Shown here: positions 4,482-31,513 of the stretch, piece after piece
Numbering within the stretch: position 1 is the stretch's first letter
Layout of the letters: the number at the start of each line of letters is the position of its first letter
NCBI GenBank assembly: GCA_045605425.1
Contig: JAZUQA010000002.1
Span: forward strand, 358,715-390,714
Length of the DNA stretch: 32,000 nucleotides
Origin: Acutalibacteraceae bacterium
GTDB lineage: Bacteria > Bacillota > Clostridia > Oscillospirales > Acutalibacteraceae
Direction of reading: 5' to 3'
Position numbers and translations under genes: made by a program
The notes under the pieces: generated by a model
Databases searched by the model: none
The model's input: only the letters and a program-made list of their open reading frames with translations
What the model was told of the DNA's origin: nothing

Positions 4482-4946
4482 TTGGAAAATCAGAACGGCA
4501 AAACAGTTGCACAGAATAAGAAAGCCTATCACGACTACTTCGTCATTGAAGAGGCAGAGGCAGGCATTGAGCTTTTCGGCACGGAGGTCAAGTCCATCCG
4601 CCAGGGCAGAGTCAATCTCAAGGACTCGTGGTGCTCAATCAAGGAGGGCGAGATTTTCGTAAACGGTATGCACATCAGCCCCTACGAACACGGCAACATC
4701 TTCAACCGTGACCCGCTTCGTGTGCGCAGGCTGCTTATGCACAAGCGTGAAATCAACCGCCTTTTCGGTCTGACGAAGCAGCAGGGCTACGCAATCGTTC
4801 CCCTTTCGCTCTATTTTGTAAAGGGAAAAGCTAAACTCAAAATCGGTCTATGTAAAGGCAAGAAACTTTACGACAAGCGTGAGGTTGCAGCTAAAAAAGA
4901 TGCCCAGCGTGATATTGAGAGAAACTTATCAATTCGTAATTCGTAA
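4482..4946 (+). CDS. smpB: SsrA-binding protein SmpB
   Basis: The translation matches the SmpB pattern ([38 protein letters not shown]....[24 protein letters not shown]). TTG start follows a GAGGTGAGAGG RBS. The gene lies near ssrA. Confidence 0.95.
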
Positions 4947-5744: not shown

Positions 5745-6098
5745 GGGGATGAAAGGATTTCGACGGGGATTCAGAGTCACGATAAGCGAGTAGCAGTGCG
5801 GATACTGCTTTAAAAGCCGCAGTTTATTAAAAATAAACGACAACAATACAGTTCTTAAAGCTGCTTAACTTTTAGCAGCCGTCGTTACCGGGAGTACCGC
5901 GGCCCGGATAACGGCGTCGATTAGCGGTGAACGTGCGTGTCAGATTAGCCTTGTATGACACCATGAACTAAAGGCTACCGTAGGGTAAAGCCTGCCGGTC
6001 GGCGCTACCCGAGGGGAATCCTAAAAGAGCGGATACACTCGTAGAAAGTTGTGGTAATGGGTTTTCGGACGCGGTTTCGATTACCGCCATCTCCACCA
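5745..6098 (+). ncRNA. ssrA: tmRNA (transfer-messenger RNA)
   Basis: The 5' end GGGGATGAAAGGATTTCGACGGGG and the 3' end GGACGCGGTTTCGATTACCGCCATCTCCACCA form the tRNA-like domain. The internal tag frame ends AAC GAC AAC AAT ACA GTT CTT AAA GCT GCT TAA (..NDNNTVLKAA-stop), with the stop in the loop of hairpin GCTGCT-TAACTTTT-AGCAGC. The resume codon is uncertain. Confidence 0.95.
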
Positions 6099-9220: not shown

Positions 9221-9499
9221 ATGTCTGACTTTATTGAAGATTTTTATTACGGAAACATAGAGCCGCAGGAGTGCACAACTGGTCTGACGGCAAAAGTTAA
9301 AAAGAGCCTGGGTGAGCTTGCCGGCAAAGAGGAGCATCTGACATCAATCCTCGCTGACAAAGAGCAGGAGCTTTTCACCGACTATGTAGCGACCTACATC
9401 AAATTTTCAAGTCTCTGCAACGCAGACAGCTTCACAGTCGGATTCAGACTCGGAGCAAGATTCACATATGACACTTTTATCGAAAACAAGAAAGGATGA
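9221..9499 (+). CDS. hypothetical protein of the kind found next to TnpV in clostridial mobile elements (92 aa)
   Basis: AAGGAG RBS. The stop overlaps the next gene. From memory, this protein type accompanies TnpV-like genes. Confidence 0.55.
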   Translation: MSDFIEDFYYGNIEPQECTTGLTAKVKKSLGELAGKEEHLTSILADKEQELFTDYVATYIKFSSLCNADSFTVGFRLGARFTYDTFIENKKG

Positions 9500-9504
9500 A
9501 ATTT

Positions 9505-9861
9505 ATGGCAAACGTTACCTACAGACAAGTCAATGATTATATGATACCCAATCTCACACTCCCGCCCGAAGAATCAGCTGTCCGCCTCGGCAAATGGGGT
9601 ATGCTGTATAAGGACTACTTACAAAAACATAACCCCGTCCTTTTCGCAACTCTCCTTACCCAAGGTAAACTCTACCAGTGCTGTGCCGAGGTAGAAAATC
9701 AAGCAAAAGATATGTTTGATACTCTCGTTGAGCAGATGAAGGAAAGCGAAGGTGTCACAGAAGTATTAAAAGAACAAAACCAATGGGAGTGGGTACAAAG
9801 AATGAATAACATTCAACAAAGAGCTAGAGCCATAGTTGAACATATTATAATTTTTAGTTAA
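9505..9861 (+). CDS. TnpV-like transposon accessory protein
   Basis: MANVTYRQVNDYMIPNLTLPPEE...GKWGMLYKDYLQKHNPVLF...EGVTEVLKEQNQWEWVQRMNNIQQRA resembles the Tn4451 TnpV family (recalled, not searched). Start chosen at the second ATG. Confidence 0.55.
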   Translation: MANVTYRQVNDYMIPNLTLPPEESAVRLGKWGMLYKDYLQKHNPVLFATLLTQGKLYQCCAEVENQAKDMFDTLVEQMKESEGVTEVLKEQNQWEWVQRMNNIQQRARAIVEHIIIFS

Positions 9862-9863
9862 AC

Positions 9864-9900
9864 AAAAATCAAGGGCAAAAATTCACTGCCCTTGATTTTT
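9864..9900. terminator. Bidirectional terminator between convergent genes
   Basis: AAAAATCAAGGGCA (9864-9877) / TGCCCTTGATTTTT (9887-9900), with an A-run on one side and a T-run on the other. Confidence 0.75.
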
Positions 9901-10781
9901 TAATACGCATAATATTCCGCACCTAAATTTTGGAGCTTTGCTACTCTATCATCACTGTTTGGATGTGTTGAATATAAAGCCTTGAGTAAGCCATTTTCCG
10001 GTTTTGAACACATATGTCTATCCAATACACTTTCTAGAGTTTCCCCGTAACCAATTTGATATGCATACTTATCAGCTATGAATTCATTCTGACGCATAGA
10101 CCACATAAGAAATAACATACAAAATTTTGTCCATAACCAAATGGATACAGTAGACAACCCGCCAAAGATTGTCATAAGAATTGTACCCCAAACACTTTTA
10201 GTACCAATTCCCATTATTGTAAAGAAGCCTGTTATTAACCAGCAAACAACCTTTATTATCAAAAGAATACCGGAAATCATCAGATTCCCACCGCCAATTA
10301 ATAATTGAATTGTTGAATGATGGTATGCGATGTGTCCGAGCTCGTGTGCAAAAACCGCCATAATTTCATTATCTGACAGTTTTAAAAGTCCATCTGTGAC
10401 ACATATGGTTTTTCTTCCTATAGCAAATGCATTTGGTGATTCATCATGTATTATTTTCAAATGTATTTCATCTACCATTGATGGTGTTCTTTTTTTTGCT
10501 TTTTCAAACACTATTTCCAACAAAGGGATTAGTCTAATTTTTATATCTTTACGTTTTATCTCTCTGGCACCGGACATAGCCGCAAGAGTCCATTCTCCCA
10601 CAGGAGACAGGCTAATTAATACTGTTGATAGATAACAACCAACAAGCGGAAGTGCGGTTTCCAATGTTAAACTATACGGATAAAACAAAGCTAATATCAA
10701 AGAAATATTTAAAAGAAAAAATATTAAAGTTCCCAAATTAGATATTCTAAAAATTCTTCCAAGCCTGTGCCAAATATCCAC
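9900..10781 (-). CDS. M48-family (HtpX-like) membrane zinc metallopeptidase
   Basis: HELGHIAYHH (HExxH) plus STHPNSDDRVAKL. Multiple TM helices. GGAGG RBS then a GTG start. Confidence 0.8.
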   Translation of the reverse strand: MDIWHRLGRIFRISNLGTLIFFLLNISLILALFYPYSLTLETALPLVGCYLSTVLISLSPVGEWTLAAMSGAREIKRKDIKIRLIPLLEIVFEKAKKRTPSMVDEIHLKIIHDESPNAFAIGRKTICVTDGLLKLSDNEIMAVFAHELGHIAYHHSTIQLLIGGGNLMISGILLIIKVVCWLITGFFTIMGIGTKSVWGTILMTIFGGLSTVSIWLWTKFCMLFLMWSMRQNEFIADKYAYQIGYGETLESVLDRHMCSKPENGLLKALYSTHPNSDDRVAKLQNLGAEYYAY

Positions 10782-10803: not shown

Positions 10804-11070
10804 CTAATCAATGAAGTTAAATACATCTTTAAACTTTTCTTTAAAGATTTCAAACACAACTTGCAGAGTTGCTTCATTATCAACACTGATATAACTCTCT
10901 GTTTCATCAGCTACTTCTTCAAGTTGTAGGATAACAACCTCATCAGTTTTATCGGAAACCGGAAGCAAAACCACATATTCTTTGCCACGATAAGGAATGA
11001 GATCAAGGAATTCAAACTCCGCTTCATTACCCTCGTCATCATTTAAAACTATTATATTTTCGTTTTCCAT
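10804..11070 (-). CDS. DUF1292-family small acidic protein
   Basis: The pattern DDEGNEAEFEFLDLIPYRGKEYVVLLPVSD..DEVVILQLEE is characteristic of DUF1292. Confidence 0.7.
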   Translation of the reverse strand: MENENIIVLNDDEGNEAEFEFLDLIPYRGKEYVVLLPVSDKTDEVVILQLEEVADETESYISVDNEATLQVVFEIFKEKFKDVFNFID

Positions 11071-11081
11071 TTTTCCACCTT

Positions 11082-11336
11082 TTAATACAGATACTCATCA
11101 TTCAGCTCAACACCGAGCAATTCAAGTAGAGTATCTTTTTTGTTTTCAATACAAGTTTTCATAGCGGATTTGATACTGTCCATAGAAATGCTGTCAGGCA
11201 GCATAGCTCTCGGAACAGTATGACCGAACATTGCCTTGTATTGTTCTTCGATTTGATAGTATTCTTGATCTATTACAGGTTCGGGAGTATCAAGAAAAGC
11301 ATTCATAAAATCTGAAACCTTTTTATCTATACTCAT
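11082..11336 (-). CDS. putative immunity protein for the HExxH toxin (84 aa)
   Basis: Starts 4 nt after the toxin stop with an AAAGGAG RBS. Small, acidic and helical. The call is positional only. Confidence 0.45.
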   Translation of the reverse strand: MSIDKKVSDFMNAFLDTPEPVIDQEYYQIEEQYKAMFGHTVPRAMLPDSISMDSIKSAMKTCIENKKDTLLELLGVELNDEYLY

Positions 11337-11339: not shown

Positions 11340-12392
11340 TTATCTGCTCCTTTCTAATACCCGAACATATTGGTCGGGTTGGATTGATTCAATAAGTGTT
11401 GAAAACACGCCAAACGCAGTTGGGAAGAAGTTAGCAAGCATTTCAAGTTTTTCCTCACTACCCATAGATGCCTCAAAAAAGTGTGCAAACGCTTCAGCTT
11501 GAAGATTTCCGGAACGAGTCCAATATTCTCTTGAATGCCCGTAACTTCCGTGTAATTGCCCATTAGTGGTTGCATCTATTAAGTCTGAAAAAGAATGTGC
11601 TGAGTCAGACCGTATGCGTGTTAAAAAAGCGTTCTGCCGTTCAGGGGGGAGATTGTTATATAATTGCAATATCCGTTGACCGTCTCGCATTAACGCATTT
11701 CCAAATTCAGGTGTATTTGACAAGTTTCCTTGATAACCCGTTGATGCGTGGTCGATCATATGTGCAAGCTCGTGAAAATATGTAGTACCTGCACCTCTCG
11801 GATTAGACATATCCAATGTCGCATTGTAATAAACACCTCTCCGGTGTCCCTCATAGTTCATCGGTGAGTAATGTGCCGTTTGATTTGACGGATAGTTCGC
11901 ATCTTGTATCAACATTTGATTTGTAAAATGGTCAAATACTCTGCGAACTCTCGTTTCACCGTTTTGGTGTCTTTCAGATATTACATTGAGATAACCTTCA
12001 GGGATATTACCCCTCGTCAACACACCAAGACAATACTGATAGGAAGGTGTTTCACCTGCGGAATATGTCATATTTCTCAGGTTTCGAACAAAGGCATTGT
12101 CTGCGCCCATACTTCCATCTAAGTTAACATTATCATATTCCTGCAAACTTTTTGCAAGCGAACCTATGAATTGTTCGCCCTTGGATAAGATCTTCAAGAT
12201 TTCATTTAAGGCTTTGCTACATTCTTGAACGACATCGCCTAATTCCTTATACTTTTTATCTTTCCATTCGCCATTAAGTTGCTGATACTTTCTCGTCATT
12301 GACGATCTTGTCGTTTCGATGCTTGTAATTGCTGTCTTGATATTATTCCAAGATTGCAATAGCTCAGTTAGATCGGCATTTACCATTCCCAA
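11340..12392 (-). CDS. Polymorphic toxin: WXG100/LXG-like N-terminal domain + HExxH zinc-metallopeptidase C-terminal domain
   Basis: The N-terminal 90 aa are about 60% identical to the N-terminus of the 12630..13496 protein (W-K-D-K-K-Y, QEYDNVNL). The C-terminus has TTYFHELAHMIDH and a downstream EAFAHFFE (gluzincin-like third ligand). Likely TTG start. Confidence 0.75.
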   Translation of the reverse strand: MGMVNADLTELLQSWNNIKTAITSIETTRSSMTRKYQQLNGEWKDKKYKELGDVVQECSKALNEILKILSKGEQFIGSLAKSLQEYDNVNLDGSMGADNAFVRNLRNMTYSAGETPSYQYCLGVLTRGNIPEGYLNVISERHQNGETRVRRVFDHFTNQMLIQDANYPSNQTAHYSPMNYEGHRRGVYYNATLDMSNPRGAGTTYFHELAHMIDHASTGYQGNLSNTPEFGNALMRDGQRILQLYNNLPPERQNAFLTRIRSDSAHSFSDLIDATTNGQLHGSYGHSREYWTRSGNLQAEAFAHFFEASMGSEEKLEMLANFFPTAFGVFSTLIESIQPDQYVRVLERSR

Positions 12393-12434: not shown

Positions 12435-12617
12435 TTATAATTTAATTCTTCCTTTTCTACTAAAGCAAGGACATTTAATGGTATTTGAAAGAACTTCTGT
12501 GGGTTTGCTTTCATATTTAGCACAACTATCTTTGCATTTTGGAGTTTGAAATTCGCATAAGTCACATTGTGATTTTGCGATAACTACCTCATTTTCTTTC
12601 CAACAAAACTTATCCAT
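12435..12617 (-). CDS. Cys-rich small protein (60 aa), putative immunity or zinc-ribbon protein
   Basis: GGAGGA RBS. Contains C-x2-C-x6-C-x3-C (CDLCEFQTPKCKDSC) plus C5 and CPC. Lies directly downstream of the ART toxin. Confidence 0.5.
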   Translation of the reverse strand: MDKFCWKENEVVIAKSQCDLCEFQTPKCKDSCAKYESKPTEVLSNTIKCPCFSRKGRIKL

Positions 12618-12629: not shown

Positions 12630-13496
12630 TTACACAAGCATTCTTGCAATAATCGTTCTGTTTCCAAACATGTCTCGTCTTACATCAGTTATTTGTAGCA
12701 TCTGTCCACAATCGAATAATACTTCACTTTCGTAGTGTTGTGCGTGACTTAAATAACCAACATAAGCACCATTCGCTCCTTCAGGAACTGATATTTCATA
12801 TCTGATTTCTCCACCAAACGCATCCTCTCTATTCAGGCTTGTACTCATAAAACCATCATCGCTTATAATGTTACCTATTAGTTCCTCATCGGTTGCATTC
12901 GCATAATTGCCAAGCGAACTACGCGAAGCACCTCTATATACGGTACAAGACTGAGGGATACTGCTTTGACTTAAAGCACTATGTATTAAAGATGCTCTCT
13001 CGTGATTTCCGGCATCAAAATCAGATTCCAATCCTCTTAAAACAGCGTTAATATTAACATATGAAGTGCCTGTATAATCTCTTATGGCTGATCGTTCAGA
13101 AGGCGATAGATTGTCCGACCATTCTTTACCCGCCAATTTTACTGTTGCATTATTATCATTTCCTGACAAGGAATTAGTTGTGTTTGATGCAGGATTAGAA
13201 GTTGGTGGTGGAGTTCCACCGGCAAAATTAACATTCTCATATTCTTGCAAACTTTTCACAAGGAGTGCAACATATTTTTCTCCTTGTAAAAGCGTTTTTA
13301 AGATTGTATTTAACGACTTTGAGCAATCGTTTACTACATCGCCTAAGTCCTTATACTTTTTATCATTCCAACCGTTTCCAAGTTGCTGATATTTTGTAGA
13401 TATTGAAGCTTTTGTTGTTTCGATACTATCTATTGCAGTTTGCATATTCTTTACAGTGTACAATAAAGTATTCAAATCAGAATTAACTACACTCAA
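12630..13496 (-). CDS. Polymorphic toxin: WXG100/LXG-like N-terminal domain + R-S-E ADP-ribosyltransferase domain
   Basis: The C-terminus carries the C3/VIP2-type motifs AIRDYTGTSYVNINAVLRG, TVYRG (Arg), GFMSTSL (S-T-S) and HYESEVLF (E-x-E). The N-terminus has GWNDKKY and QEYENVNF, then a Pro/Thr linker. TTG start after GAGGTGA. Confidence 0.85.
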   Translation of the reverse strand: MSVVNSDLNTLLYTVKNMQTAIDSIETTKASISTKYQQLGNGWNDKKYKDLGDVVNDCSKSLNTILKTLLQGEKYVALLVKSLQEYENVNFAGGTPPPTSNPASNTTNSLSGNDNNATVKLAGKEWSDNLSPSERSAIRDYTGTSYVNINAVLRGLESDFDAGNHERASLIHSALSQSSIPQSCTVYRGASRSSLGNYANATDEELIGNIISDDGFMSTSLNREDAFGGEIRYEISVPEGANGAYVGYLSHAQHYESEVLFDCGQMLQITDVRRDMFGNRTIIARMLV

Positions 13497-18024: not shown

Positions 18025-19179
18025 TTATTTTTCTTCTAATTCAAAATTACATTTACCTTCACAATCTTTCCCAAACCCAACAACTAATGAAGTGGTAACC
18101 TGTAACGGATAACTGAAAATTTCTACCATTTCACCGCCTATGGCAGGGTCACTTGTATTGCAAATAAGTGTATATTGTTTAAGATTGTTTAACAGACGAG
18201 GAATATACTCTTCGTTGTTAGAATTTAAAATGTCAATAATAAGTTTTATTCCTATACTTGTTATAAAGTTAATATCAACGGAAATACCAGGTTCAAATTT
18301 TACGCTCTCAACATTTTCTTGATTTGAATATACGTGATGATTTGCTTCAACACGACCTGAAAGGTCACCACTACCCAATGCACACTTATAACAAGGCATG
18401 TTTTTGTTGGGAAGGTGATAAAAAATTTCTCCAGCATACGCTCTTTCCCAAAATCCGATAGATATAAAAGCTGCGTCAAAATAAATTGCGATTTTATTTG
18501 CATAAACATCAGCTGTTCTGTTATCTCCACAACCGACAAATATTGTCTCAAAAGGAACGCACATCTTATCAAGAATATCCTTGGGAATATTCTGAATAAT
18601 TCCGCCAAAAGTCTTAATATTTGCTTTTGGATTAATATTCAAAATCTTTCTTTTAAGTGCATTTACCTTTAAATCTCCAACATCTTCAATGCCACATTGA
18701 TGGCGACATACATTGTGGTACTCAAGAGTGTCTGCATCACATAAAACATACTTTTCAACACCTGCTCGGGCCAATTCCATAGCAACTAAACTGCCAACAG
18801 AACCACAACCGATAATTACAGCACATTTTTTCTTCATAATATCTGTTTCAAGAATACCTTTATTTCTTGAAAAAATGCTCTGATATAAACCATACGATTC
18901 GGTTATTACTTTCTCTCCACACCAAAAGAATTCGATACTTTCATTAGTAATTACACCACAGAAACCATCAATGACAGGGGCACTATCTTCAGGAAGAATA
19001 TCACCAAGATACTCACCTTTGTCGGATAATTCATTGGGAAACACATTGAAAATTCCAGTATCTTCAAAGTATTTACCATATAATTTCATACACTGTTTAT
19101 TGTGCAGTTGTTCTTCGGAAATAAAAACGGTAAGAGGGATATCTTCACCAAAGAAATTTTTAGGGCGCTTAATATTCAT
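18025..19179 (-). CDS. E1-like (ThiF/MoeB/UBA-type) adenylyltransferase
   Basis: Rossmann motif AVIIGCGSVGSLVAMELARAGV, then LCDADTLEYHNVCRHQ (the D.D....N..RQ signature) and PCYKC. ATG at 19179 lies 4 nt after the JAB stop. An extra domain of about 110 aa sits at the N-terminus. Confidence 0.8.
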   Translation of the reverse strand: MNIKRPKNFFGEDIPLTVFISEEQLHNKQCMKLYGKYFEDTGIFNVFPNELSDKGEYLGDILPEDSAPVIDGFCGVITNESIEFFWCGEKVITESYGLYQSIFSRNKGILETDIMKKKCAVIIGCGSVGSLVAMELARAGVEKYVLCDADTLEYHNVCRHQCGIEDVGDLKVNALKRKILNINPKANIKTFGGIIQNIPKDILDKMCVPFETIFVGCGDNRTADVYANKIAIYFDAAFISIGFWERAYAGEIFYHLPNKNMPCYKCALGSGDLSGRVEANHHVYSNQENVESVKFEPGISVDINFITSIGIKLIIDILNSNNEEYIPRLLNNLKQYTLICNTSDPAIGGEMVEIFSYPLQVTTSLVVGFGKDCEGKCNFELEEK

Positions 19180-19183
19180 ATAA

Positions 19184-20188
19184 TCAGTCCTCGTTTCTGT
19201 TAAATCTAATAATTTTAATAACAGAGTCAACAACTCCGGATTGCTTTCTTGCTTTTATTTTTATACCGCTGTCTTTTTCACGTTCAGCTTTTGCTCTACC
19301 ATATGCTTCGGTAAAAAGACCTCTTTGATACTTATAGCATTTATTATCATAGGAAAGCGTAATACTTTCATCATCAACAATTAACATAAAGTACAACTTT
19401 GTTGTTTTATCAATAGTTTCTTGATAAACTGTAAGATAGTTGTTTTCAAGTGAAATAGCAGTTTCAATGTTAAGTGTCTCTGCCATAAAGGTTAAATCAT
19501 CTACGATTTCATCAATTAAGTCTTCTTGGATCTCCTCATTAACAGGTGACTCACTTGTTTGTATTTCTGAACACTCATAATCTTTTAATTTCGGTAAGAT
19601 GAATTTCATAAATGATTCCAAACTTACTGATTTATGGTATCCATCATTAATATTTCTGGTTCTATTCGATGAACCAAGAAGATTCTCCATAATAGTGCCA
19701 AAACGTTCTTGTGTTTTAAATTTCAGTAGATCATCTGGAATTAAATTATCTCCAACATCATATTCGATTTTTTTATACCTACAGGGGTAAGCAACATGAT
19801 ACATTGTGATTCTAAAGTTAGGGTCAATATTTACCAATGCGGAAATCGCACCTTCATTTCGCATAGAAGCATATTTGAAGTTTGTACCATCATCAGTTGA
19901 TGAGAACTGGTCAAAAGACCCCGGGTGACGATGCCACAAGCCTATCAATGTAAGTTGCTTGTCATACAAATTAGCTATTTTGTTTATCAAATGTTGCGTA
20001 TATTTTTGATCATATTCAAAATAAGCAACCTCAAAAACTGATTTTGGGCCGGGGTCTATAGCTTCAATTATGTACCACGTATCATCTTGCACGGTTCCTA
20101 AAAACAAACCACCGGTTTCTGTTTTAATTTTTTCAGTTGTTTCTGCCAAAACAGAGGTGTATGCTCTATTTGAAAAAACTACTCTCAT
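19184..20188 (-). CDS. JAB/MPN+ (JAMM) metalloisopeptidase with an unknown C-terminal domain
   Basis: ETGGLFLG (Glu) plus LWHRHPGSFDQFSSTD, which equals H-x-H-x7-S-x2-D. GGAGG RBS before ATG 20188; the upstream alternative start in the ORF track is unlikely. Confidence 0.85.
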   Translation of the reverse strand: MRVVFSNRAYTSVLAETTEKIKTETGGLFLGTVQDDTWYIIEAIDPGPKSVFEVAYFEYDQKYTQHLINKIANLYDKQLTLIGLWHRHPGSFDQFSSTDDGTNFKYASMRNEGAISALVNIDPNFRITMYHVAYPCRYKKIEYDVGDNLIPDDLLKFKTQERFGTIMENLLGSSNRTRNINDGYHKSVSLESFMKFILPKLKDYECSEIQTSESPVNEEIQEDLIDEIVDDLTFMAETLNIETAISLENNYLTVYQETIDKTTKLYFMLIVDDESITLSYDNKCYKYQRGLFTEAYGRAKAEREKDSGIKIKARKQSGVVDSVIKIIRFNRNED

Positions 20189-20266
20189 ATTATTAAACCT
20201 CCAGCCTAAAAGTAAAACCTCCAAACTCTCATATACTTAGCAAGAGAGTTTGAAGGTTTAGTAATT

Positions 20267-20821
20267 TTAATAATTACCTTCCATTGCGACATCGTCGCCG
20301 ATTTCACCGTTTAACCACATCTCGCAAAGAATAATCCACTTGCAAGCCCAACTCAATGCTGAAGCAGCAGAAGTAGACTGTGTCTTATCTCCTTTAAAAT
20401 ACTTCGGGTCAGCGGTACAAATAAAATATTCTTCATTACGCCCGAAATGATCTTTATAGATGTGTGGAAGACCAAGTCCAAATCCTCTGCGACAAACTTC
20501 ATCATAGTTATTGTTATAAGTATCCATAACAATAGGCATCATTTTGTCAGCTACATCTTTAAGTCTTGGACTAAGTGGAAGGATTTGGACAGTTCCACCA
20601 TACTCATATTCACTGCCAACATGAGGATGTGAATTTTTATAAATAAGCATTATATCCCACACCATGCCACCAGCTCCGGTAGGCTGAACCTTTCCTCTCC
20701 AATATAATCTACCAGAACCATCCTGCAACTGGTTTATGGTAAATGAAGGGAAGAATTTTTTCATTGCGGCAACTTCCATCTGATAAAGTTGAGGGTCACT
20801 TTGATACCAATAATAAGCCAT
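20267..20821 (-). CDS. E2-like (UBC-fold) protein, prokaryotic type
   Basis: N-terminal helix, then RLYWRGKVQP...VWDIMLIYKNSHP (E2-like beta-meander). LPHIYKDHFGRNEEYFIC resembles an HPN-type loop followed by the catalytic Cys. The gene sits directly before JAB and E1. Confidence 0.55.
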   Translation of the reverse strand: MAYYWYQSDPQLYQMEVAAMKKFFPSFTINQLQDGSGRLYWRGKVQPTGAGGMVWDIMLIYKNSHPHVGSEYEYGGTVQILPLSPRLKDVADKMMPIVMDTYNNNYDEVCRRGFGLGLPHIYKDHFGRNEEYFICTADPKYFKGDKTQSTSAASALSWACKWIILCEMWLNGEIGDDVAMEGNY

Positions 20822-20832
20822 CGTGTGCCTCC

Positions 20833-21006
20833 TTATGCCAATTTTCCATCAGGAACCTGAATTCCTGAAAGTCCCTGGTCCATAGCATCATCTTTCTTTT
20901 CGACTTCACCACTTGCTGTAACCACAACAGGTTCACCTGTACGTAAAGCTTCAGCCAATGCTCTTCTTCTTGCAGCAACAGCATCATTGTTTACATTGTT
21001 ATCCAT
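20833..21006 (-). CDS. small protein (57 aa, below ORF-track cutoff) in the position a Ubl gene occupies in Bil-type operons
   Basis: GGAGGT RBS 9 nt before ATG 21006. Translation: MDNNVNNDAVAARRRALAEALRTGEPVVVTASGEVEKKDDAMDQGLSGIQVPDGKLA. Stop TAA at 20835-20833, 11 nt before the E2-like start. Confidence 0.55.
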   Translation of the reverse strand: MDNNVNNDAVAARRRALAEALRTGEPVVVTASGEVEKKDDAMDQGLSGIQVPDGKLA

Positions 21007-23560: not shown

Positions 23561-23905
23561 TTACTCACCACTCACTTGATCCATTTTTCCATTTAACCAA
23601 CATTCATCTAATTGATACGGAAAAACATCTAATTGTCTTATCGTATAGTGTGTATTAGGGTTATAGTCGAAAAATAAAATTAAAGACATATAGGTATTCC
23701 AAGACATTACTCTTTTTAAACTTTCAATAGAGTTATATGTTTGTCTCGACACACCAATCGCATTAGCAACTTCGTCTTGTGTAGCATTTGCAGCACCCCT
23801 CAATGCGGGTAACGCTTTTGTCAAACTGTTAATTAAACGATCTTTGTCTTCTTTGCTAAAATGCCAATAGTCCATATAATCTTTTCTTTTTCTTATCTGG
23901 TTCAT
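23561..23905 (-). CDS. XRE-type HTH regulator, first gene of the operon (114 aa)
   Basis: ATQDEVANAIGVSRQTYNSIESLKR is a helix-turn-helix. The start lies 25 nt from the left inverted repeat of the recombinase segment. Confidence 0.7.
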   Translation of the reverse strand: MNQIRKRKDYMDYWHFSKEDKDRLINSLTKALPALRGAANATQDEVANAIGVSRQTYNSIESLKRVMSWNTYMSLILFFDYNPNTHYTIRQLDVFPYQLDECWLNGKMDQVSGE

Positions 23906-23930
23906 TTATATATCCTTCAACCAACGTATA

Positions 23931-23959
23931 ATTTTCGTAGAGTATTCTCCTTGACGAAA
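23931..23959. repeat. Left 29-bp inverted repeat (IR-L)
   Basis: ATTTTCGTAGAGTATTCTCCTTGACGAAA is the exact reverse complement of 25358-25386. Confidence 0.9.
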
Positions 23960-23963
23960 ATTC

Positions 23964-24000
23964 AAAGACACAACCCTTTATACTTAGAGTTGTGTCTTTT
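23964..24000 (-). terminator. Hairpin terminator after the recombinase gene
   Basis: AAGACACAAC (23965-23974) / GTTGTGTCTT (23989-23998). On the minus strand it is followed by TTTGAATTTT. It sits just inside IR-L. Confidence 0.6.
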
Positions 24001-24032
24001 TATTGACCATATTTTTGACGGGAAATAGAAAT

Positions 24033-25157
24033 TTAAATTGCTATTGAATTTAGTTTTTCCATAGACATTCTTTTGAGTTGCATAGAGGAGTGCACATATT
24101 TATCAAGCGTGATTTTCACACTGGAATGACCTAATATTTCACTAAGTGTTTTTACATCAAAGCCAACTTCAACACATCGGGTTGCAAAAGTGTGTCGTAA
24201 CGAATGAAAATTCGCATCAGAAATCATGCCTTGTTTCAAATAAGATTTAAATCGATTTTGCATCGTTCGCGGTTCTACAATGTCAATAGAATTACCCGAT
24301 AAAAGATAGGCGTTGGGTATTGTAATAAAGGGTATCATTTTTTCTAACAAAAAATCAGGTAATGGTATTACTCTGACAGAATTATAAGTTTTAGGGTCTG
24401 TAATTATAATTTTAGTTTTTGATGTGCAATTAAAATCATCACATTGTAACCTTTGCATAGTTGCCTCAATTTTTAACGTTTTATCAGCTATAGAAATATT
24501 TTTGCATTTTAGAGCACACAATTCTCCAATGCGTATTCCTGTATACAAACAAATTAAAATACCTAATTTACATCTATCAATATCGTTTGATATCACTGAT
24601 ATTAGTTTTTGTTCTTCAGAAATACTTAAAACTCGCATTTCATTAGTAGCTTTTCTGATGGGAAGTCTGCTAAAAGTACAGTTTATTATCTCTCCATGAC
24701 TTTGAGCAAATTTGAAAGTTTCTTTTATAATAACCATAATATCTGACATACTTTTGCTTGATAATCCACCACCAAATTTTTTACCATTTTGCATTTTGTT
24801 GGCGATAAAACTTTCAACTAATTCAGTACTGATTTTATTGATTGGATATTTACCGAGCTTGGGTTTTATATGATTTTCAATAATGTTTTTATATCTTATA
24901 TAGGTAGACTCTTTAACAATAAGTTTTTTACTAATAAGCCAATCATCAAGCCACTTACTATATATGGTATTTGATTTAGAGGTAACAAAATTTACAGTTT
25001 GTGTTTGCTCATTAAATAATTTGTTTTTTACTTCGGCATATGTTTTTGCATATAAGTATCGATATTTTGCTTTACCATTTTCATCGTAAAATAAAATATA
25101 TCTTGCTTCCCATCGACCGTCTTTTCTCTTGTAAATGTTTTCACCTGTACGTGGCAT
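24033..25157 (-). CDS. Tyrosine site-specific recombinase / integrase (374 aa)
   Basis: Arm-type N-terminus (ENIYKRKDGRWEARY). Catalytic-domain motifs TGIRIGELCAL (Arg), HSLRHTFAT (H-x-x-R) and LGHSSVKITLDKYVH (His...Tyr). Confidence 0.9.
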   Translation of the reverse strand: MPRTGENIYKRKDGRWEARYILFYDENGKAKYRYLYAKTYAEVKNKLFNEQTQTVNFVTSKSNTIYSKWLDDWLISKKLIVKESTYIRYKNIIENHIKPKLGKYPINKISTELVESFIANKMQNGKKFGGGLSSKSMSDIMVIIKETFKFAQSHGEIINCTFSRLPIRKATNEMRVLSISEEQKLISVISNDIDRCKLGILICLYTGIRIGELCALKCKNISIADKTLKIEATMQRLQCDDFNCTSKTKIIITDPKTYNSVRVIPLPDFLLEKMIPFITIPNAYLLSGNSIDIVEPRTMQNRFKSYLKQGMISDANFHSLRHTFATRCVEVGFDVKTLSEILGHSSVKITLDKYVHSSMQLKRMSMEKLNSIAI

Positions 25158-25301
25158 TATAAAGTTCCTCCGTTTCTTTACATTGACGGATTAATGACCA
25201 TAAATGCAACTTAAATTCGTCAAAACAACTAATTTGTTCATTGTTGTTTTGCTTATAATGAATAAAAATTGTATTTTTATTCAACAAAATAATTGCACAT
25301 A

Positions 25302-25330
25302 TTGACAAATCCGACAACATTATGTATACT
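25302..25330 (+). promoter_or_regulatory. Strong outward-facing promoter inside the invertible segment
   Basis: TTGACA (25302-25307), 17-nt spacer, TATACT (25325-25330). It points toward IR-R, 28 nt away. Confidence 0.65.
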
Positions 25331-25357
25331 TATTTTAACTAATTATTGGAATTTTTC

Positions 25358-25386
25358 TTTCGTCAAGGAGAATACTCTACGAAAAT
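25358..25386. repeat. Right 29-bp inverted repeat (IR-R)
   Basis: TTTCGTCAAGGAGAATACTCTACGAAAAT is the exact reverse complement of 23931-23959. Confidence 0.9.
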
Positions 25387-25399
25387 AATTATTAATTTC

Positions 25400-25734: not shown

Positions 25735-26577
25735 TTAAGTAAACACTTCATTTAATCTATACCTGCTCACATTGTAGCTATTCTCACGCTCAATGGCACC
25801 GGATTTGACGAGTTCGGTTAATCGCTTCTTTGAAAATGATGTTGAACCGAAATATGCATCAAAATTTGCAACAGGAAGAACAACCCAATCTGTATCCTCT
25901 TGTCGGTTGGCATAGTAATATTTTACGAGAGTTTCAAGTGCATAAGCTGTGCTCGGTGCTGTTGTAAAATTAGTTATCTTTGCTTTCGTTTCTTGGGTCA
26001 GTTCATAATCCTTGTTTTTGAGTTCACCAAGTTCTAAAGCAGATGAAAGTATATCATCAAATCGCAGAATCCAAGCACCTTTGGTTTTGAGATAATAAGT
26101 GTTGAAATGCATACGGGCAACCTTGTCACGCCAAGCAGTATCAAAGTTTTTATCCATAAGAGTATATTTTTCAACCTCTTTTGCCGTAAACTTATCGGGA
26201 TTGCTTATGGCAAATCTCATAGCATTATGGAAATGTCTGTAAAACCAACCTTCACCGTTTTCTGTAACAAGCCCAGGAAACTCGTTGTGGTACTCTCTGA
26301 AATCTGTACTGAACCGCCATTCTTCTTTTTCTTTTGATTTATCCTTATCGGGAATACTGCACCAAGCAGAGATTGCCCGTCTTGCATATTCAATGTCAGC
26401 AGTACCGTTCTTGAACATATATCCTCTTGCAATTATGGTCAGCACCCTCGGAAATCCCTCAAAGCCTTGTATTCCCTCACAGGTAAATCTGCTGAAAAAA
26501 GAGTTATCATTTCTGTTATCACGCTTGTATATCGGTGCTTCCGTGTAAGCCTTAAATTCGGCTATCTCGTTCAGCAT
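25735..26577 (-). CDS. hypothetical protein co-transcribed with the YonO-like polymerase (280 aa)
   Basis: AGGAG RBS 8 nt before ATG 26577; the ORF-track TTG at 26595 is less likely. It overlaps the upstream gene's 3' end. No recognised motif. The C-terminal segment (KKRLTELVKSGAIERENSYNVSRYRL) could be a winged helix. Confidence 0.6.
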   Translation of the reverse strand: MLNEIAEFKAYTEAPIYKRDNRNDNSFFSRFTCEGIQGFEGFPRVLTIIARGYMFKNGTADIEYARRAISAWCSIPDKDKSKEKEEWRFSTDFREYHNEFPGLVTENGEGWFYRHFHNAMRFAISNPDKFTAKEVEKYTLMDKNFDTAWRDKVARMHFNTYYLKTKGAWILRFDDILSSALELGELKNKDYELTQETKAKITNFTTAPSTAYALETLVKYYYANRQEDTDWVVLPVANFDAYFGSTSFSKKRLTELVKSGAIERENSYNVSRYRLNEVFT

Positions 26578-29500
26578 AAGACTTGCTCCTGTCAATAATA
26601 TATTTCTCTGTTTCGGTCAGCAAAATATCAAAGATATATCTTCTGTAGCCTGCCGCAACAACATAGGGTACCGCATCATTCAGCCTGATGATTTTTGAAA
26701 GCAGTTTTCTGCATTCTTCTGTTACAGCTTCTTTGTAATCATAGGTCTTTGATTTGTTTCTGTATGCCAACATCATAGCCGTCATTTCTTCACTGTCATT
26801 TTCAAAATGAAGTGAAGTAAGGTTACGCAATTTGTTCTCGGCATATCTGTCACAGATAATATCAGAAAACACTCTGTCACCGTTGTGTCTGAAATCACAG
26901 AATAAATCAATATAACTTTCAAAATGCTCACCGACAAGATAAGTTTTCAAAAATTGTTCTCTTTCTTCGGGCAGCATAAACTGCCATTTGCACTTTTGCA
27001 TCTGAGTATAGATTTCTTCAATTTCTTCGGGTGTGAAATCGGTAAAGAGTGCATAAAGCTCGTCTGTGTCATAATCATTTTCCTGACCACGCATAAAGAG
27101 AATACGCTCAATATCAGATTTTCTTTCCGGTATATCCGACCTGTTTCTGTTATTACGGATTCTTTTTAAGCAATGCTCATAATCATCCAACAGTGTAGTA
27201 ACTCTGTTTAACTTCTTTTTATCAAGACCTGATTTCCAATCAGGATTCTGAGCAAAAGTGAAAATTTCACTGTCAGGTGCAGTCGGTTCCTTGGCTTTTG
27301 GTGTGTTCCTTTTCAGCTCATAAGCATAAAATGGTAACCTTTCAAGGTTTGAGCTGACTTTCGACCAATCTGTATTTTTGAAAAACTCCTTGAACTGCTC
27401 GTCATAAGTCTTCTCGTACCAAGACCTGCGTTCGTTCTGCTTTTCAATAAGGGACTTGTATTTAAGGAACAGACTTTTCGGTGCTCTGTTGGTTACAAGA
27501 TATTCCGAAAGGTCAGGCTTAACACCGCTTTTTGCTGAGTCAATTTCCAAGCCTGTAAGAATGGCCAGAGTTTCTGTTTCTTTCCTGTACTGTGCTTTTT
27601 TACCTTTTGCATTCTCATCATAAGCTAAAATACTTCTGTTAAGTGCCGCATTGGAAATTTGTCCCACACGGGAAGAAAAAGTATTTTTAACAGTTTCAAA
27701 TCTTGCTTCCCAATCCTGTGCATCGGATACTATTGGTTCCTCTGTGGGTATGAATAACAAAGGTAACGGATTATCACTTTTGCCGTAATACTCAGGCTCC
27801 GTTTCTTTTGTGTAAAGATATGAAATGATAATTCTGTCTGCAATTGTCTTTACCATATCACCGTCAAAATCTGCACCGCCAAGTCTCATAGGTATATCAG
27901 AGCTATCCGATACCATAATGACATCGGTTAAATGGCTGAAATATTTATCTCTGTAATATCCGACATCTTTTAAAGGTCGCACCTGAACACTTTCGTTTTT
28001 AGATATATGCGGATTGCGAAGAAGTGAATATTTGTAATCTGTTCCATAGCTGTTACCGGGAGCATAAACATAATTTCCGGACAATTCTTCATCAATAATA
28101 TCTGCAAATTTTCTGCTGCCATCAGCAAGAAAAGCAAAAAGCGACATTAAGTCAGCAGATAAATATCTGTTGTCACCCTGAACAAAAAGCTGTCCTATTG
28201 CATATTTCCTTAAAATATTCTCTGCAATATCGTCTATGTCTTTAGAGAAGAAAGGCTCATCAATGAGCAATGAGTTTTTGCTAATCAGCCTTGCTTTGAT
28301 TTTTAAATCCTCATCAGCATCATCCAAATGCTTTGCGTAATAATCTATTCTGTATTTTCTGTTGTTGCAGTAATCGTAATATGCCTGCTCCGTTGCTTTT
28401 GTCAGCCACTCTCTTTTATCACGTGACGGACTTTCTTTCCAGCCTGAAGGCAAATCTTTAGGTCTGAATTTTTCTTCAGGTATTGCAACGGTATTTAAAA
28501 ACTGAAAGTTAAGTTCAGTTAAATTTTCATTTTCACCCTTACCTACATTTGAAATATATAACGAGTGTCTGTACTTTTTACAGCGTTCAAGATAATCGTT
28601 AAAGCTCAATCCATTTTCTTTAAGCCAACCTTTACCCTTGAACATTGTATCGGTAAGAATAAGGTTAATCTTATCAACAGGATGCTCAACACCCCACATA
28701 TCTTTAACGGAATATATACCTAAACTTTTAAGAAATGATTTGAAATCAACCTCGTGTACCATACCTTTTATGTAAGGTAAACGAATCTGAAAAGAAAAAT
28801 GAATATGCTTACCGCAGAACTGTTTATCAATTTCTTTTGCAAATGCAGGAGAGATAAAACCTTCACCGTCGAATGCATCGCAAGTAAATTCAACTTCCTT
28901 TTCGGCACGGTTGTATTTTTTTACTGCCGTATTTTTATCTTTTGATGTAACTGTTACGGCGTGAGTTTTAATAAATCTTTCCCAAGTTTTTATGATAACA
29001 ATGCTGTCTTCATCAAAAAGATGTTTGCTTTCAATTCTTGTACCGCCCGAAAACATAAGTCCGTTGTAAGCGTAAAGCTTACTTAACTGACACAAACCGA
29101 TATTCATATCAAGCTGTATTCTTGATTTAACTTTTTCATAAACATCACTTCTTATGAAAGACAAGCGAGCGTTTCTGCTCATACTTGCAGAGCGTTCAAA
29201 GGCAACAAAGTTTTTCATACCTGTTCCTAAATCAATATTTATTCCCTCGGGACGGAACATTGATTTTGCTTTTAACTGTCTTAAACGGATACGTTCGCTC
29301 TTTGCATCTCTGTCAAAAATTCCACCGAAGTCAATGTAAACTATCACATCAGAGAGGTTAGAAATTTTTGTATCGCTCTTCGGCTGAGTAAATTTATCAG
29401 AAGTTAAAACACTCATTAACTGATAAAACATTGCACAGTCTTCCTGCAAACTGTTTTCTTTATTCATCAAGCACTTTGCAGTTGCACTGTTATTAAGATT

Positions 29501-29590
29501 AAAAATATATGTTTCTTCATTTTGCTTTTCGGCATAAGAGATAATTCCTCTCGCCGAAAGCATCGGTATTTCATAAGTAATATGTGCCAT
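26552..29590 (-). CDS. YonO / cellular-RdRP-like two-barrel RNA polymerase homologue (1012 aa)
   Basis: MRLGGADFDGDMV matches the (G)GxDxDGD catalytic loop of the eukaryote-type RdRP / phage SPbeta YonO family and the NADFDGD loop of RNAP beta-prime. Large size. GAGGTG RBS. Confidence 0.65.
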   Translation of the reverse strand: MAHITYEIPMLSARGIISYAEKQNEETYIFNLNNSATAKCLMNKENSLQEDCAMFYQLMSVLTSDKFTQPKSDTKISNLSDVIVYIDFGGIFDRDAKSERIRLRQLKAKSMFRPEGINIDLGTGMKNFVAFERSASMSRNARLSFIRSDVYEKVKSRIQLDMNIGLCQLSKLYAYNGLMFSGGTRIESKHLFDEDSIVIIKTWERFIKTHAVTVTSKDKNTAVKKYNRAEKEVEFTCDAFDGEGFISPAFAKEIDKQFCGKHIHFSFQIRLPYIKGMVHEVDFKSFLKSLGIYSVKDMWGVEHPVDKINLILTDTMFKGKGWLKENGLSFNDYLERCKKYRHSLYISNVGKGENENLTELNFQFLNTVAIPEEKFRPKDLPSGWKESPSRDKREWLTKATEQAYYDYCNNRKYRIDYYAKHLDDADEDLKIKARLISKNSLLIDEPFFSKDIDDIAENILRKYAIGQLFVQGDNRYLSADLMSLFAFLADGSRKFADIIDEELSGNYVYAPGNSYGTDYKYSLLRNPHISKNESVQVRPLKDVGYYRDKYFSHLTDVIMVSDSSDIPMRLGGADFDGDMVKTIADRIIISYLYTKETEPEYYGKSDNPLPLLFIPTEEPIVSDAQDWEARFETVKNTFSSRVGQISNAALNRSILAYDENAKGKKAQYRKETETLAILTGLEIDSAKSGVKPDLSEYLVTNRAPKSLFLKYKSLIEKQNERRSWYEKTYDEQFKEFFKNTDWSKVSSNLERLPFYAYELKRNTPKAKEPTAPDSEIFTFAQNPDWKSGLDKKKLNRVTTLLDDYEHCLKRIRNNRNRSDIPERKSDIERILFMRGQENDYDTDELYALFTDFTPEEIEEIYTQMQKCKWQFMLPEEREQFLKTYLVGEHFESYIDLFCDFRHNGDRVFSDIICDRYAENKLRNLTSLHFENDSEEMTAMMLAYRNKSKTYDYKEAVTEECRKLLSKIIRLNDAVPYVVAAGYRRYIFDILLTETEKYIIDRSKSYAERDSRI

Positions 29591-29792: not shown

Positions 29793-30137
29793 TTGAAAGA
29801 AAACAAAAAGACGAAACTTGTAAAGGCATATTTTACTGAAGAAGATTACGAAAGACTTAATTATTTTTGCAGCATAATGAAGATTTCAAAATCAAAAATG
29901 ATTCGGTTTCTGCTTTATTACAAGAACATTAAAGAAGCTCCGCCTGTTGATTACACAGTTTTAATCAGAGAAATGCGTGCAGTCGGTAACAATTTAAATC
30001 AGCTTGCGAGAGTTGCAAATGCAAAAGGTTGGATTAATGAAAAGGAATTGCGAGTCGCTATTCTTTCTCTTCGTGAACTTGAAAAGAAAATATCGGCTGA
30101 GTTTCAGTTAAGCAAGGAGGATGAATATTGGCAGTAA
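29793..30137 (+). CDS. mobC: MobC-type relaxosome accessory protein
   Basis: RHH-like N-terminus and the characteristic VGNNLNQLARVAN motif. TTG start after AGAGGTGA. Overlaps the relaxase start. Confidence 0.8.
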   Translation: MKENKKTKLVKAYFTEEDYERLNYFCSIMKISKSKMIRFLLYYKNIKEAPPVDYTVLIREMRAVGNNLNQLARVANAKGWINEKELRVAILSLRELEKKISAEFQLSKEDEYWQ

Positions 30138-31513
30138 CAAAAATATGGTCGGTCAAAGGAAAACTGAAAGGTGTTGTTGATTACGCAATGAATCCCGATA
30201 AAACTCTTAATGACTATTACAGTAATTCTGAATTGCAATCACTTAAGGATGTAATTGATTACGCAGTTGAAAGTGAAAAAACGGAAATGCAATATTTTGT
30301 AAGCGGAATAAATTGCAATCCCGAGTTTGCCCGTGACCAGATGACGGAAACAAAAAAGCTGTTTCATAAGCAAGACGGAATAATTGCCTTTCACGGTTAT
30401 CAGAGTTTTAAACCCGGTGAAGTTACACCTGAGCTTGCTCACGAAATCGGAAAAGAGCTTGCACAGAAATTATGGGGAGACAGACACGAGGTTATTGTAG
30501 CAACACATCTTGACCGAGGTCACATTCACAATCACTTTGTTGTGAACAGTGTTTCAATGGTTGACGGAAAAAAGTTCAATGCCTGCAAGCAAAGTTATGC
30601 ACTTATGAGAAAGGTTTCTGATGAACTTTGCATCAAATACGGATTATCAATAGTTGAAAAGCCGCATAAGGCTCCGAGAAGGATGACCTATTTTGCAGAG
30701 AGAAACGGAGAAAATCATCAGTATGATTTACTGAAGTTTCATATTGATGATTGCTTATCACGAAGTTCAAATATCAGAACTTTCATTTGGCTGATGGAAA
30801 AGAAGGGATATACTTTTGATTTCAATCGTCCCGAGCCGACTGTTTATCACAAAAGATTTAACCGTCCCGTATGGCTTTGCGACCTTGGTGACGGTTATGC
30901 AATTAACGATATTGAAGAAGTAATACTGACAAAAAGACATTACACGAGAAGAGTAACTCACGATTCGATTACTTTCAAAACCTTATTCTTTGACGGCAAC
31001 CCTTACAATTACAAAAGCGGAATCAGCAGCTCTTACACTTGCTTGTGTAAAGGGCTGTTAATGTTTAAAGAGCATCCCCATTGCAATGAGGTTGAAATTT
31101 ATCTTGAACAGGAGCTTTTGAAATTTGACCAACTTTGTGAAGAACAGAACTTATTGCTTGATAATGATGTTGAAAGTTACGAAGACCTTGAAGCACTAAT
31201 TTTAAACACCGAAAAAGAATTGCAGGAAATGGACGAAGCAAGAAATGTGTTCAGAAACAAACTGAAGTGTGCTGTCCGTGCAGGTGATGAAAGCTTACAG
31301 AAAGAAATCCGTGAGGATATTGCAAATCTCACTGCCGCTATGAGAGTTGCAAGAAAGAATATAAGGATTTTAAACAGAGTTAAGTACAGGGCTGAGGGTG
31401 TAGTAAACAGAATGGATAGCATCAACGAGTATTCGAGAATGTATGAGCGTTACGCACGTGATGATTTCCGAACCAAAACAAATACAAACAAAATTCAGGA
31501 AAGGAGCCGATAA
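30128..31513 (+). CDS. Relaxase / mobilisation nuclease (MobA/VirD2 family)
   Basis: THLDRGHIHNHFVVNSV is the HxDxxxHxH 3-His motif. The N-terminal relaxase fold region ends with a coiled-coil C-terminus. AAGGAGG RBS before the TTG start. Confidence 0.85.
   Translation: MAVTKIWSVKGKLKGVVDYAMNPDKTLNDYYSNSELQSLKDVIDYAVESEKTEMQYFVSGINCNPEFARDQMTETKKLFHKQDGIIAFHGYQSFKPGEVTPELAHEIGKELAQKLWGDRHEVIVATHLDRGHIHNHFVVNSVSMVDGKKFNACKQSYALMRKVSDELCIKYGLSIVEKPHKAPRRMTYFAERNGENHQYDLLKFHIDDCLSRSSNIRTFIWLMEKKGYTFDFNRPEPTVYHKRFNRPVWLCDLGDGYAINDIEEVILTKRHYTRRVTHDSITFKTLFFDGNPYNYKSGISSSYTCLCKGLLMFKEHPHCNEVEIYLEQELLKFDQLCEEQNLLLDNDVESYEDLEALILNTEKELQEMDEARNVFRNKLKCAVRAGDESLQKEIREDIANLTAAMRVARKNIRILNRVKYRAEGVVNRMDSINEYSRMYERYARDDFRTKTNTNKIQERSR

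Follow-up and report, generated by a model that had tools for sequence, protein, structure and literature searches.

We report here a small gene cassette for a putative ubiquitination-like pathway in a 32,000-nucleotide (nt) stretch of DNA from an Acutalibacteraceae bacterium (GCA_045605425.1, contig JAZUQA010000002.1, 358,715-390,714); this whole stretch is called the window, all positions are based on it, and the whole analysis is computational. Four genes occupy 18025-21006 on the minus strand, i.e., those of a 57-amino acid (aa) protein (p57), an E2-like protein, a JAB peptidase, and an E1-like protein (Table 1). An initial annotation had called these four open reading frames (ORFs) at the same coordinates, and we confirmed them, with their strand, as well as all of the strings it had quoted: HRHPGSFDQFSSTD, GCGSVGS, DADTLEYHNVCRHQ, EEYFIC, the terminal ...QGLSGIQVPDGKLA, and the tails EYENVNF and QYNKVKF. 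Its view that this is a genuine E2/JAB/E1 cassette of the Cap2/Cap3 lineage in a Bil-like gene order is borne out by both the profile matches and the gene order. The true starts of JAB and E1 are likely at 20188 (Met13) and 19179 (Met19), respectively, because their homologs are 333 and 385 aa long.

The four genes keep this order in all 47 complete genome loci, which come from gut and rumen Clostridia, and the order recurs in 49 genome loci and five metagenome places, which is far beyond chance. The source genomes, both metagenome-assembled genomes and isolates, belong to Faecalibacterium (including F. prausnitzii ATCC 27768), Oscillospiraceae, Lachnospiraceae, Butyricicoccus, Christensenellaceae, and others, and one p57 variant is present on at least 1000 contigs. 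Please note that genes in the fetched loci were called as the longest ORF, and some N-termini are over-extended. An ATPase gene adjoins E1 in every one of the 47 complete genome loci, where FtsK-type and WXG-like genes flank the E2/JAB/E1 triad. In one clade with an E2 identity of 41-45% (L051-54), the membrane protein, p57, E2, JAB, E1, and ATPase are all kept, followed by WXG-like genes. More distant relatives were collected by an E2-family profile search of 1.84 billion representatives and a metagenome contig scan. Sixteen distant metagenome loci have flanks of 5 kb or more on both sides, and in 12 of them the triad has an FtsK-type and a WXG-like neighbor, in several gene orders; detection of both here relied on hidden Markov models (HMMs) from the close clade, which divergent members may escape. 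Other neighbors of distant triads are DedA/VTT and SH3 membrane proteins, or a primase-polymerase. The triad is a portable module, and its commonest partner is a type VII-like apparatus.

The E1-like protein matches Pfam ThiF (7.8e-24) and the PADLOC models of Cap2-type E1-E2 proteins (8.8e-25), with the alignment falling on the E1 half of the latter; its best sequence matches in PDB are MccB (6e-13) and then Cap2 (1.2e-9). The JAB protein matches Prok-JAB in Pfam (1.4e-7) and the JAB model of PADLOC (6.2e-13), and in NCBIfam ICE_VC0181 (6.5e-11) and Cap3 (4.2e-4), while its C-terminal half has no Pfam match. The E1 adenylation signature and the JAMM motif, both called in the initial annotation, are present and at least 95% conserved in related loci. 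In E1 (92 aligned sequences) this level of conservation applies to GxGSVGS, D166/D168, the arginine finger R177, K189, and D237, and also to Cys176, Cys180, and Cys358; in JAB (96 aligned sequences) it applies to each of E36, H98, H100, S108, and D111, leaving the motif E...HxH...S..D intact. The E2-like protein is recognized by the PADLOC E2 models of the cyclic oligonucleotide-based antiphage signaling system (CBASS) at 1.9e-9, and these models are matched by 16 of 16 close and distant E2 family members (best 2.2e-15). A local Pfam copy gave no E2 family for the window protein or for the 16 family members, and a precomputed Pfam match of the window protein to PF26395 (E2-CBASS) is marked weak. 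Cys135 (in EEYFIC) and His120 (in LPH) are invariant across the family down to 27% identity. The AlphaFold model of E2 (mean predicted local distance difference test, pLDDT, 76.8; predicted template modeling score, pTM, 0.73) contains an N-terminal helix, a four-stranded sheet, and helices in a UBC-like element order, with Cys135 located at the end of a hairpin (E120-123/E131-136). The catalytic Cys has the same placement in the non-canonical ATG3/ATG10-like E2 domain of Cap2, as reported by Ledvina et al. (10.1101/2022.03.31.486616). Membership of our protein in the E2 family is assigned from sequence profiles and the invariant Cys, not from structure. At the level of sequence, we show that all three enzymes carry intact catalytic motifs.

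p57 is a real gene under purifying selection, because a GGAGG Shine-Dalgarno sequence lies 9 nt upstream of its ATG and its changes are biased to synonymous and third positions: across 45 loci, 949 changed codons are synonymous versus 416 amino acid-changing ones, and nucleotide differences at codon positions 3, 1, and 2 number 1246, 410, and 229, respectively. The gene is directly upstream of E2 in every related locus. Its consensus reads RRRALAEAL..GEPVVVTPSGEV....I.VP.GKLA, and the strict terminal motif ...VPxGKLA is found in 53 of 53 p57 homologs but not among the several hundred proteins of the other cassette families, with the single exception of one ORF scored as E2. Among 62 unique stand-alone copies, 41 end exactly at the Ala of GKLA, 14 carry 1-6 extra variable residues (KED, RRG, GEA, TTEV, and others), and four have longer extensions.

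The distant relatives, whose E2 is 36-67% identical to the query sequences, have a p57 unit fused directly to the N-terminus of E2, a point absent from the initial annotation. We found ~45 distinct precursors with one to three units each by motif count, and four units in L069 by profile search. Every fused unit ends in ...PxGKLA, and the last one is located 0-3 residues before the FYWYE start of E2; a cut after this Ala would give an E2 N-terminus equivalent to that of the stand-alone window E2 (MAYYWYQ). Many precursors, plus many stand-alone copies of those clades, also have a short leader that ends in the motif, e.g., MFQKMITVPKGKLA followed by ADAAAEE. The precursor architectures are predicted to require cleavage after Ala. 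By analogy, they are polyubiquitin-like, in parallel to the BubAB fusion that is cut by a JAB domain. Precedents are available in related systems: the substrates of Cap2 have a terminal Gly or Ala, Ala being the one used by the E. cloacae enzyme (PMC10097602); Cap3 severs fusion proteins immediately behind the final residue of the substrate (10.1101/2022.03.31.486616); and in type I Bub, the JAB domain (BubC) cleaves the Ubl-E2 fusion BubAB after a conserved terminal Gly (PMC11601596), Ubl standing for ubiquitin-like protein. Taken together, the conservation of the terminal motif, the precursor fusions, and these precedents suggest that the C-terminal carboxylate of p57 is its functional end. 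The small ORF, which the initial annotation had placed among the options for the conjugated moiety, is now the best candidate for it, based on the GKLA motif, the selection, and the E2 fusions. A few fusions are unusual. In P0181, a TIR domain is located upstream of the E2 domain, in place of p57 units; at L113:9623-9985, a DnaJ-type CxxCxGxG zinc finger comes after the GKLA of p57; and at L097:1097-1789, a Hint-like domain lies upstream of a p57 unit.

The AlphaFold model of p57 (28 sequences, pLDDT 69.9) has a helix at 4-23, strands at 27-29 and 35-37, a helix at 38-43, a strand at 49-51, and a free tail at 52-57, an element order which is that of ubiquitin from helix 1 onward, without the N-terminal hairpin. 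Foldseek of this model returned noise only and no β-grasp, and a comparison of the p57 profile with ubiquitin and ThiS in hhalign gave no similarity. Because of the missing hairpin and these two null results, we treat p57 as not demonstrably a Ubl; as modeled, any β-grasp in it is non-recognizable. A canonical GG-ended β-grasp Ubl encoded elsewhere in conserved versions of the locus had been named as a finding that would speak against the cassette as first annotated; we inspected the C-termini of all conserved genes and found none.

Two other proposals on the conjugated end did not survive the comparison. Trimming of p57 at LSG had been considered, and we rejected it as a processing site: the segment varies among homologs (GLSG, TRPG, DTPA, GQTA), and the conserved site is the extreme C-terminus ...PxGKLA. 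No trimming is needed for the window p57, because its terminal Ala is already free. The conserved tails of the neighboring WXG-like proteins had also been put forward as the moiety. We rejected these as well, since EYENVNF or EYDNVNL is internal in both toxins, located at the end of the toxin WXG-like N-domain before the linker (SLQEYENVNF, then AGGTPPP; SLQEYDNVNL, then DGSMG), and ends in a bulky F or L. The motif looks like a type VII-style export or targeting signal, judging from its position and residues, rather than an E1 substrate.

A point missed by the initial annotation is that the cassette is the integral middle of a long co-directional operon for type VII-like export (Table 1). The ATPase next to E1 matches TIGR03928 (EssC) at 6.5e-35, with a score of 120 that is far below the cut-off of 778, and its PDB matches are EccC (4nh0, 7.1e-31), EccC5, and YukB. 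It has a long N-terminal helical region, and neither a transmembrane (TM) or hydrophobic segment nor a Pfam FHA match was found in it. On the other side of the cassette, the gene next to p57, immediately upstream, is always that of the Zn-ribbon membrane protein, and in the main clade the C-terminus of this protein reads ...NENGEIIRxF plus 0-8 variable residues plus AA. This AA end could be an ssrA-like degron or a second E1 substrate. The last ~35 residues of this protein have a loose helix and hairpin resemblance to p57, with a repeated but non-significant alignment to the p57 HMM (1-2 bits). A leader ending in ISVPEGALA is found at the start of one distant homolog. The WXG-like proteins and the toxin N-domains have W-x-D-x-K-Y at the helical turn, not the canonical W-x-G, and a C-terminal Y-x-x-[VT]-x-[LF] motif is common to three proteins of the system. 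As a possible acceptor, the Lys of the W-x-D-x-K-Y turn is only 60-90% conserved and thus a weak lead. The M48 protease is at the operon end in 26 of 54 loci, and several others are cut by the contig end.

Table 1. Genes and features of the export operon and its switch in the window
Feature	Position	Strand	Remarks
p57, candidate modifier, 57 aa	20833..21006	-	RRRALAEAL helix / VVVTxSGEV hairpin / ...VPDGKLA-COOH
E2-like conjugating enzyme, 184 aa	20267..20821	-	candidate catalytic Cys135 (EEYFIC), His120
JAB/JAMM metallopeptidase, Cap3-like	19184..20188	-	longest ORF 346 aa, to 20224; ~200-aa uncharacterized C-terminal extension
E1-like adenylating enzyme, ThiF fold	18025..19179	-	longest ORF 402 aa, to 19233; ~115-aa N-terminal domain of unknown type
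EssC/EccC-type FtsK-family ATPase, soluble, 1461 aa	13605..17990	-	FtsK_SpoIIIE 2.5e-30; one intact Walker A/B, Walker A at 912
Zn-ribbon/B-box membrane protein, 295 aa	21031..21918	-	zf-B_box 1.1e-4; three hydrophobic segments within 106-179
WXG100-like protein, 89 aa	21956..22225	-	Pfam WXG100 4e-6; conserved tail ...QYNKVKF; synteny
WXG-like protein, 93 aa	22239..22520	-	conserved tail ...EYENVNF; domain same as toxin N-termini; synteny
Coiled-coil protein, 248 aa	22575..23321	-	ends ...EEYLSTSL, Y-x-x-[VT]-x-[LF]-like; coiled-coil family matches only; synteny
Small helical WXG-like protein, 75-79 aa	23332..23571	-	synteny; W-x-D-x-K turn motif
Xre-type helix-turn-helix (HTH) regulator, operon head	23561..23905	-	HTH_31 / HTH_3; synteny
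Polymorphic toxin 1	12630..13496	-	WXG-like N-domain (internal EYENVNF) + ADP-ribosyltransferase, ADPrib_exo_Tox 2.6e-32
Cys-rich 60-aa ORF, probable immunity protein	12435-12617	-	directly after toxin 1
Polymorphic toxin 2	11340..12392	-	WXG-like N-domain (WXG100 7.9e-6, internal EYDNVNL) + HExxH domain (HELAH); weak Peptidase_M91 0.027
84-aa ORF, probable immunity protein	11082-11336	-	directly after toxin 2
DUF1292 protein	10804-11070	-	DUF1292 1.7e-15
Membrane M48 Zn-protease, operon end	9900-10781	-	Peptidase_M48 4e-24
Invertible segment	23928..25389		32-nt inverted repeats (23928-23959, 25358-25389), 97% complementary, around tyrosine recombinase gene 24033-25157

The invertible segment at 23928-25389 probably acts as a phase-variable switch and lies just ahead of the operon. 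L001 and L002 are identical outside the inverted repeats and inverted inside, and the recombinase orientation is flipped in L002, L007, L013, and L043, and also between L007 and L008. The host element looks like an integrative mobilizable element inserted beside ssrA. Genes for TnpV, MobC, and a MobA/VirD2 relaxase are found inside the element (9496-9861, 29793-31513), and SmpB (4482-4946) and a transfer-messenger RNA gene (5745-6098, tag DNNTVLKAA) are just to the left of it. The cargo region of the element also encodes a 1012-aa protein on the minus strand (26552-29590) with a eukaryote-type RNA-dependent RNA polymerase domain (PF05183, 1.9e-15), beside which lies a 286-aa ORF without a family match (25735-26595, minus strand). 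The operon had no megablast match in plasmid and phage collections, nor did E2 have a tblastn match in plasmids, and PHROGs gave nothing informative.

Among known systems, the closest one by enzyme lineage is Cap2/Cap3, by gene order Bil, and by precursor logic type I Bub, and at least one defining feature of each fails here. With type II CBASS, the cassette has in common the enzyme lineages recognized by the PADLOC E1-E2, E2, and JAB profiles, a substrate that need not be a β-grasp protein and ends in Gly or Ala, and a JAB cut exactly after the last residue, which here is a prediction. However, Cap2 is an E2-E1 fusion, whereas here the two are separate genes with the JAB gene between them; type II CBASS has a cGAS/DncV-like nucleotidyltransferase (CD-NTase) and a cyclic-nucleotide effector, neither of which was found among the operon ORFs scanned here with Pfam, PADLOC, and NCBIfam; and its substrate is a signaling enzyme, not, as proposed here, a dedicated peptide of ~50 residues, often in tandem, in a type VII-like operon. 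The Bil order is identical, with a separate small protein (the Ubl BilA), E2 (BilB), JAB (BilC), and E1 (BilD) (PMC11601603), and the Bil JAB enzyme pre-processes the modifier (PMC11601603; PMC11601596). BilA, in contrast, has one or more β-grasp domains and p57 shows none by model, Foldseek, or hhalign; moreover, the enzymes here match CBASS-type and not Bil-type models, and there is no known phage-tail target. In type I Bub the modifier is fused upstream of E2 and released by JAB, as would be the case in the distant p57-E2 relatives. Type I Bub operons comprise BubAB (Ubl-E2 fusion), BubCD (JAB-E1 fusion), and BubE. Bub differs in its modifier, as p57 is not a recognizable β-grasp protein, and in its Ser/oxyester chemistry with the DUF6527 (BubE) protease, whereas E2 Cys135 is invariant here. 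No DUF6527 was found among the window cassette proteins or the called genes of L001-L005, the genome loci having been screened only with the window's own proteins.

The surrounding operon can be compared with type VIIb secretion (EssC, EsxA, LXG toxins, YukD/EsaB) in the same way. Both have an EssC/EccC-type ATPase and WXG100-like proteins; in both, the toxins start with a helical targeting domain, probable immunity genes come after the toxin genes, and the locus includes a small accessory gene related to ubiquitin. The type VIIb EssC, however, has N-terminal FHA domains and two TM helices, both of which are missing in our ATPase; the turn is W-x-G there and W-x-D here; YukD is a non-conjugated β-grasp protein, whereas here there is a full E1/E2/JAB set; and none of the core proteins EsaA, EssA, EssB, and YukD/EsaB was recognized among the operon proteins by Pfam or NCBIfam, although very divergent analogs are possible. 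Pup is another small non-β-grasp protein tag with a critical C-terminus and in this respect resembles p57, but it is ligated via its terminal Glu side chain by PafA, a glutamine synthetase-type ligase, with no E1 or E2. In the literature, Iyer et al. 2006 described five E1/E2/JAB operon types and discussed the YukD of ESAT-6 loci apart from these, as a Ubl that is not conjugated. We found no paper in full-text literature that joins a type VII-like system with E1/E2/JAB genes; most subscription journals were outside this scope, and a prior description is possible.

Considering all of the above, we hold it to be reasonably probable, with a good deal of doubt left, that the four genes form a conjugation module that resembles ubiquitination, with enzymes of the Cap2/Cap3 lineage and p57 as its dedicated modifier, located inside a type VII-like export operon, and that conjugation regulates or licenses export. 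In such a pathway, the JAMM peptidase would cut right after the terminal Ala of extended or tandem E2-fused p57 precursors, E1 would adenylate the carboxylate of Ala57, and p57 would move as a thioester to Cys135 of E2 and then be joined to an amine on a target, a step which the JAMM peptidase could reverse. We infer that the target belongs to the export system, and p57 conjugation may regulate or license the export machine via a substrate or a component, e.g., the ATPase or the membrane protein. A more specific version, which we offer tentatively and think rather less likely to be right than wrong, is that p57 is a new ~50-residue non-β-grasp modifier ending in GKLA, single or in arrays, whose attachment licenses the soluble EssC-type ring ATPase to export WXG-tagged toxins, with the JAMM peptidase stripping the tag at the machine. 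By analogy, we speculate that protein secretion may here follow the logic of the proteasome, with a tag, a ring ATPase, and an Rpn11-type peptidase.

Several observations weigh against the conjugation and export reading. Adenylation, thioester formation, and targets are all deduced from sequence. The p57 model is moderately confident (pLDDT 69.9, pTM 0.38). The confidence of the E2 model is low near Cys135 (pLDDT ~59-67), Foldseek of this model against PDB gave no significant match (best E 0.57, with UBC, UEV, and RWD only among weak matches), and the E2 family profile had no relevant match among PDB sequences. For the E2 call of the initial annotation, the candidate Cys in EEYFIC is invariant and the PADLOC E2 match agrees with the call; its UBC-like layout has a counterpart in the element order of the model. 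In E1, the crossover loop has no conserved Cys except a partly conserved CxxC, and the invariant Cys176/180/358 are unusually placed. As for the genomic context, four of the 16 well-flanked distant loci have no detectable FtsK or WXG neighbor, and in L071 (shorter flanks, outside the 16) a TraG/VirD4-type coupling protein (L071:3974-7165, PF02534 6.9e-58) is located between JAB and E1, where the EssC-like ATPase usually sits; this protein is another translocase of the FtsK/HerA superfamily. Because of these other contexts, the link of the triad to export is strong but not obligatory. Finally, anti-phage cargo, i.e., bacteriophage exclusion (BREX)-like and 3'-phosphoadenosine 5'-phosphosulfate (PAPS)-reductase genes, lies beside the cassette in L001-L003.

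The last of these observations is what one would expect if the cassette were a Bil-like anti-phage or conflict module that tags invader proteins and just travels with export genes in mobile-element cargo. All characterized bacterial relatives (type II CBASS, Bil, Bub) are tied to phage defense or stress, a TIR-E2 fusion exists, and the triad is found in other contexts. The adjacency to the EssC-type ATPase and WXG-like genes, however, outlasts reordering and divergence to ~40% E2 identity, PADLOC matched no system-specific component besides E1, E2, and JAB, and the downstream toxins resemble exported polymorphic toxins, each followed by a small probable immunity ORF; we regard this explanation as improbable, if the most serious of the alternatives. 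Slightly less likely still is a CBASS-like arrangement in which E1 and E2 activate the C-terminus of a larger operon protein, either the Zn-ribbon membrane protein with its -AA or a WXG-like protein, with p57 as an accessory or adaptor. In its favor, the substrate in type II CBASS is a complete enzyme whose last residue is Gly or Ala, the AA of the Zn-ribbon protein follows a variable spacer of 0-8 residues in the main clade, and P0181 indicates that the E2 family can take cargo other than p57. But clade L051-54 and L035/36 have no AA terminus, whereas GKLA is retained throughout, the WXG tail motif has F or L as its last residue and lies inside the toxins, and tandem p57-E2 arrays and C-terminal extensions are hard to reconcile with an adaptor.

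The E1 by itself could be read in two further ways. MccB, which adenylates the C-terminus of a short peptide, is its best solved sequence relative, and the putative substrate here is likewise a short peptide; like MccB or PaaA, E1 might convert the peptide by adenylation or another modification into a small natural product, with no protein conjugation. We find this very unlikely: MccB chemistry needs a terminal Asn, and microcin C systems have a short precursor ending in Asn without E2 or JAB, whereas the last residue of p57 is Ala and the locus always has an E2 whose Cys is invariant, plus a JAMM peptidase that retains its motif; a folded unit of 50 residues in tandem arrays is also unlike the precursors of ribosomally synthesized and post-translationally modified peptides. 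A sulfur-carrier system of the ThiS/MoaD-ThiF/MoeB kind is hardly credible, even though E1 matches ThiF and MoeB models, as none of its NCBIfam ThiF/MoeB scores comes anywhere near the cut-off of the family, E2 and JAB are present, and there is no rhodanese domain, GG terminus, or cofactor-biosynthesis neighbor.

Returning to the reading we prefer, p57 conjugation wired into export, the terminal G-K-L-A provides a proteomic handle, since modified lysines would retain a Leu-Ala remnant (+184.12 Da) after trypsin digestion. Known bacterial ubiquitination-like pathways, i.e., type II CBASS, Bil, and Bub, use a β-grasp modifier or conjugate a signaling enzyme, and all have ties to phage defense or stress. 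The locus suggests a fourth design, in which a mini-modifier without detectable relation to ubiquitin is made from polyprotein precursors and wired into a type VII-like toxin-export operon that is without the usual membrane core. If the export link is true, it would tie covalent protein tagging to both secretion and antagonism between bacteria in the human gut. Ubiquitin-fold parts already exist in type VII systems (YukD and the EccD N-terminal domain), and the same link, if true, would offer one possible reason why.

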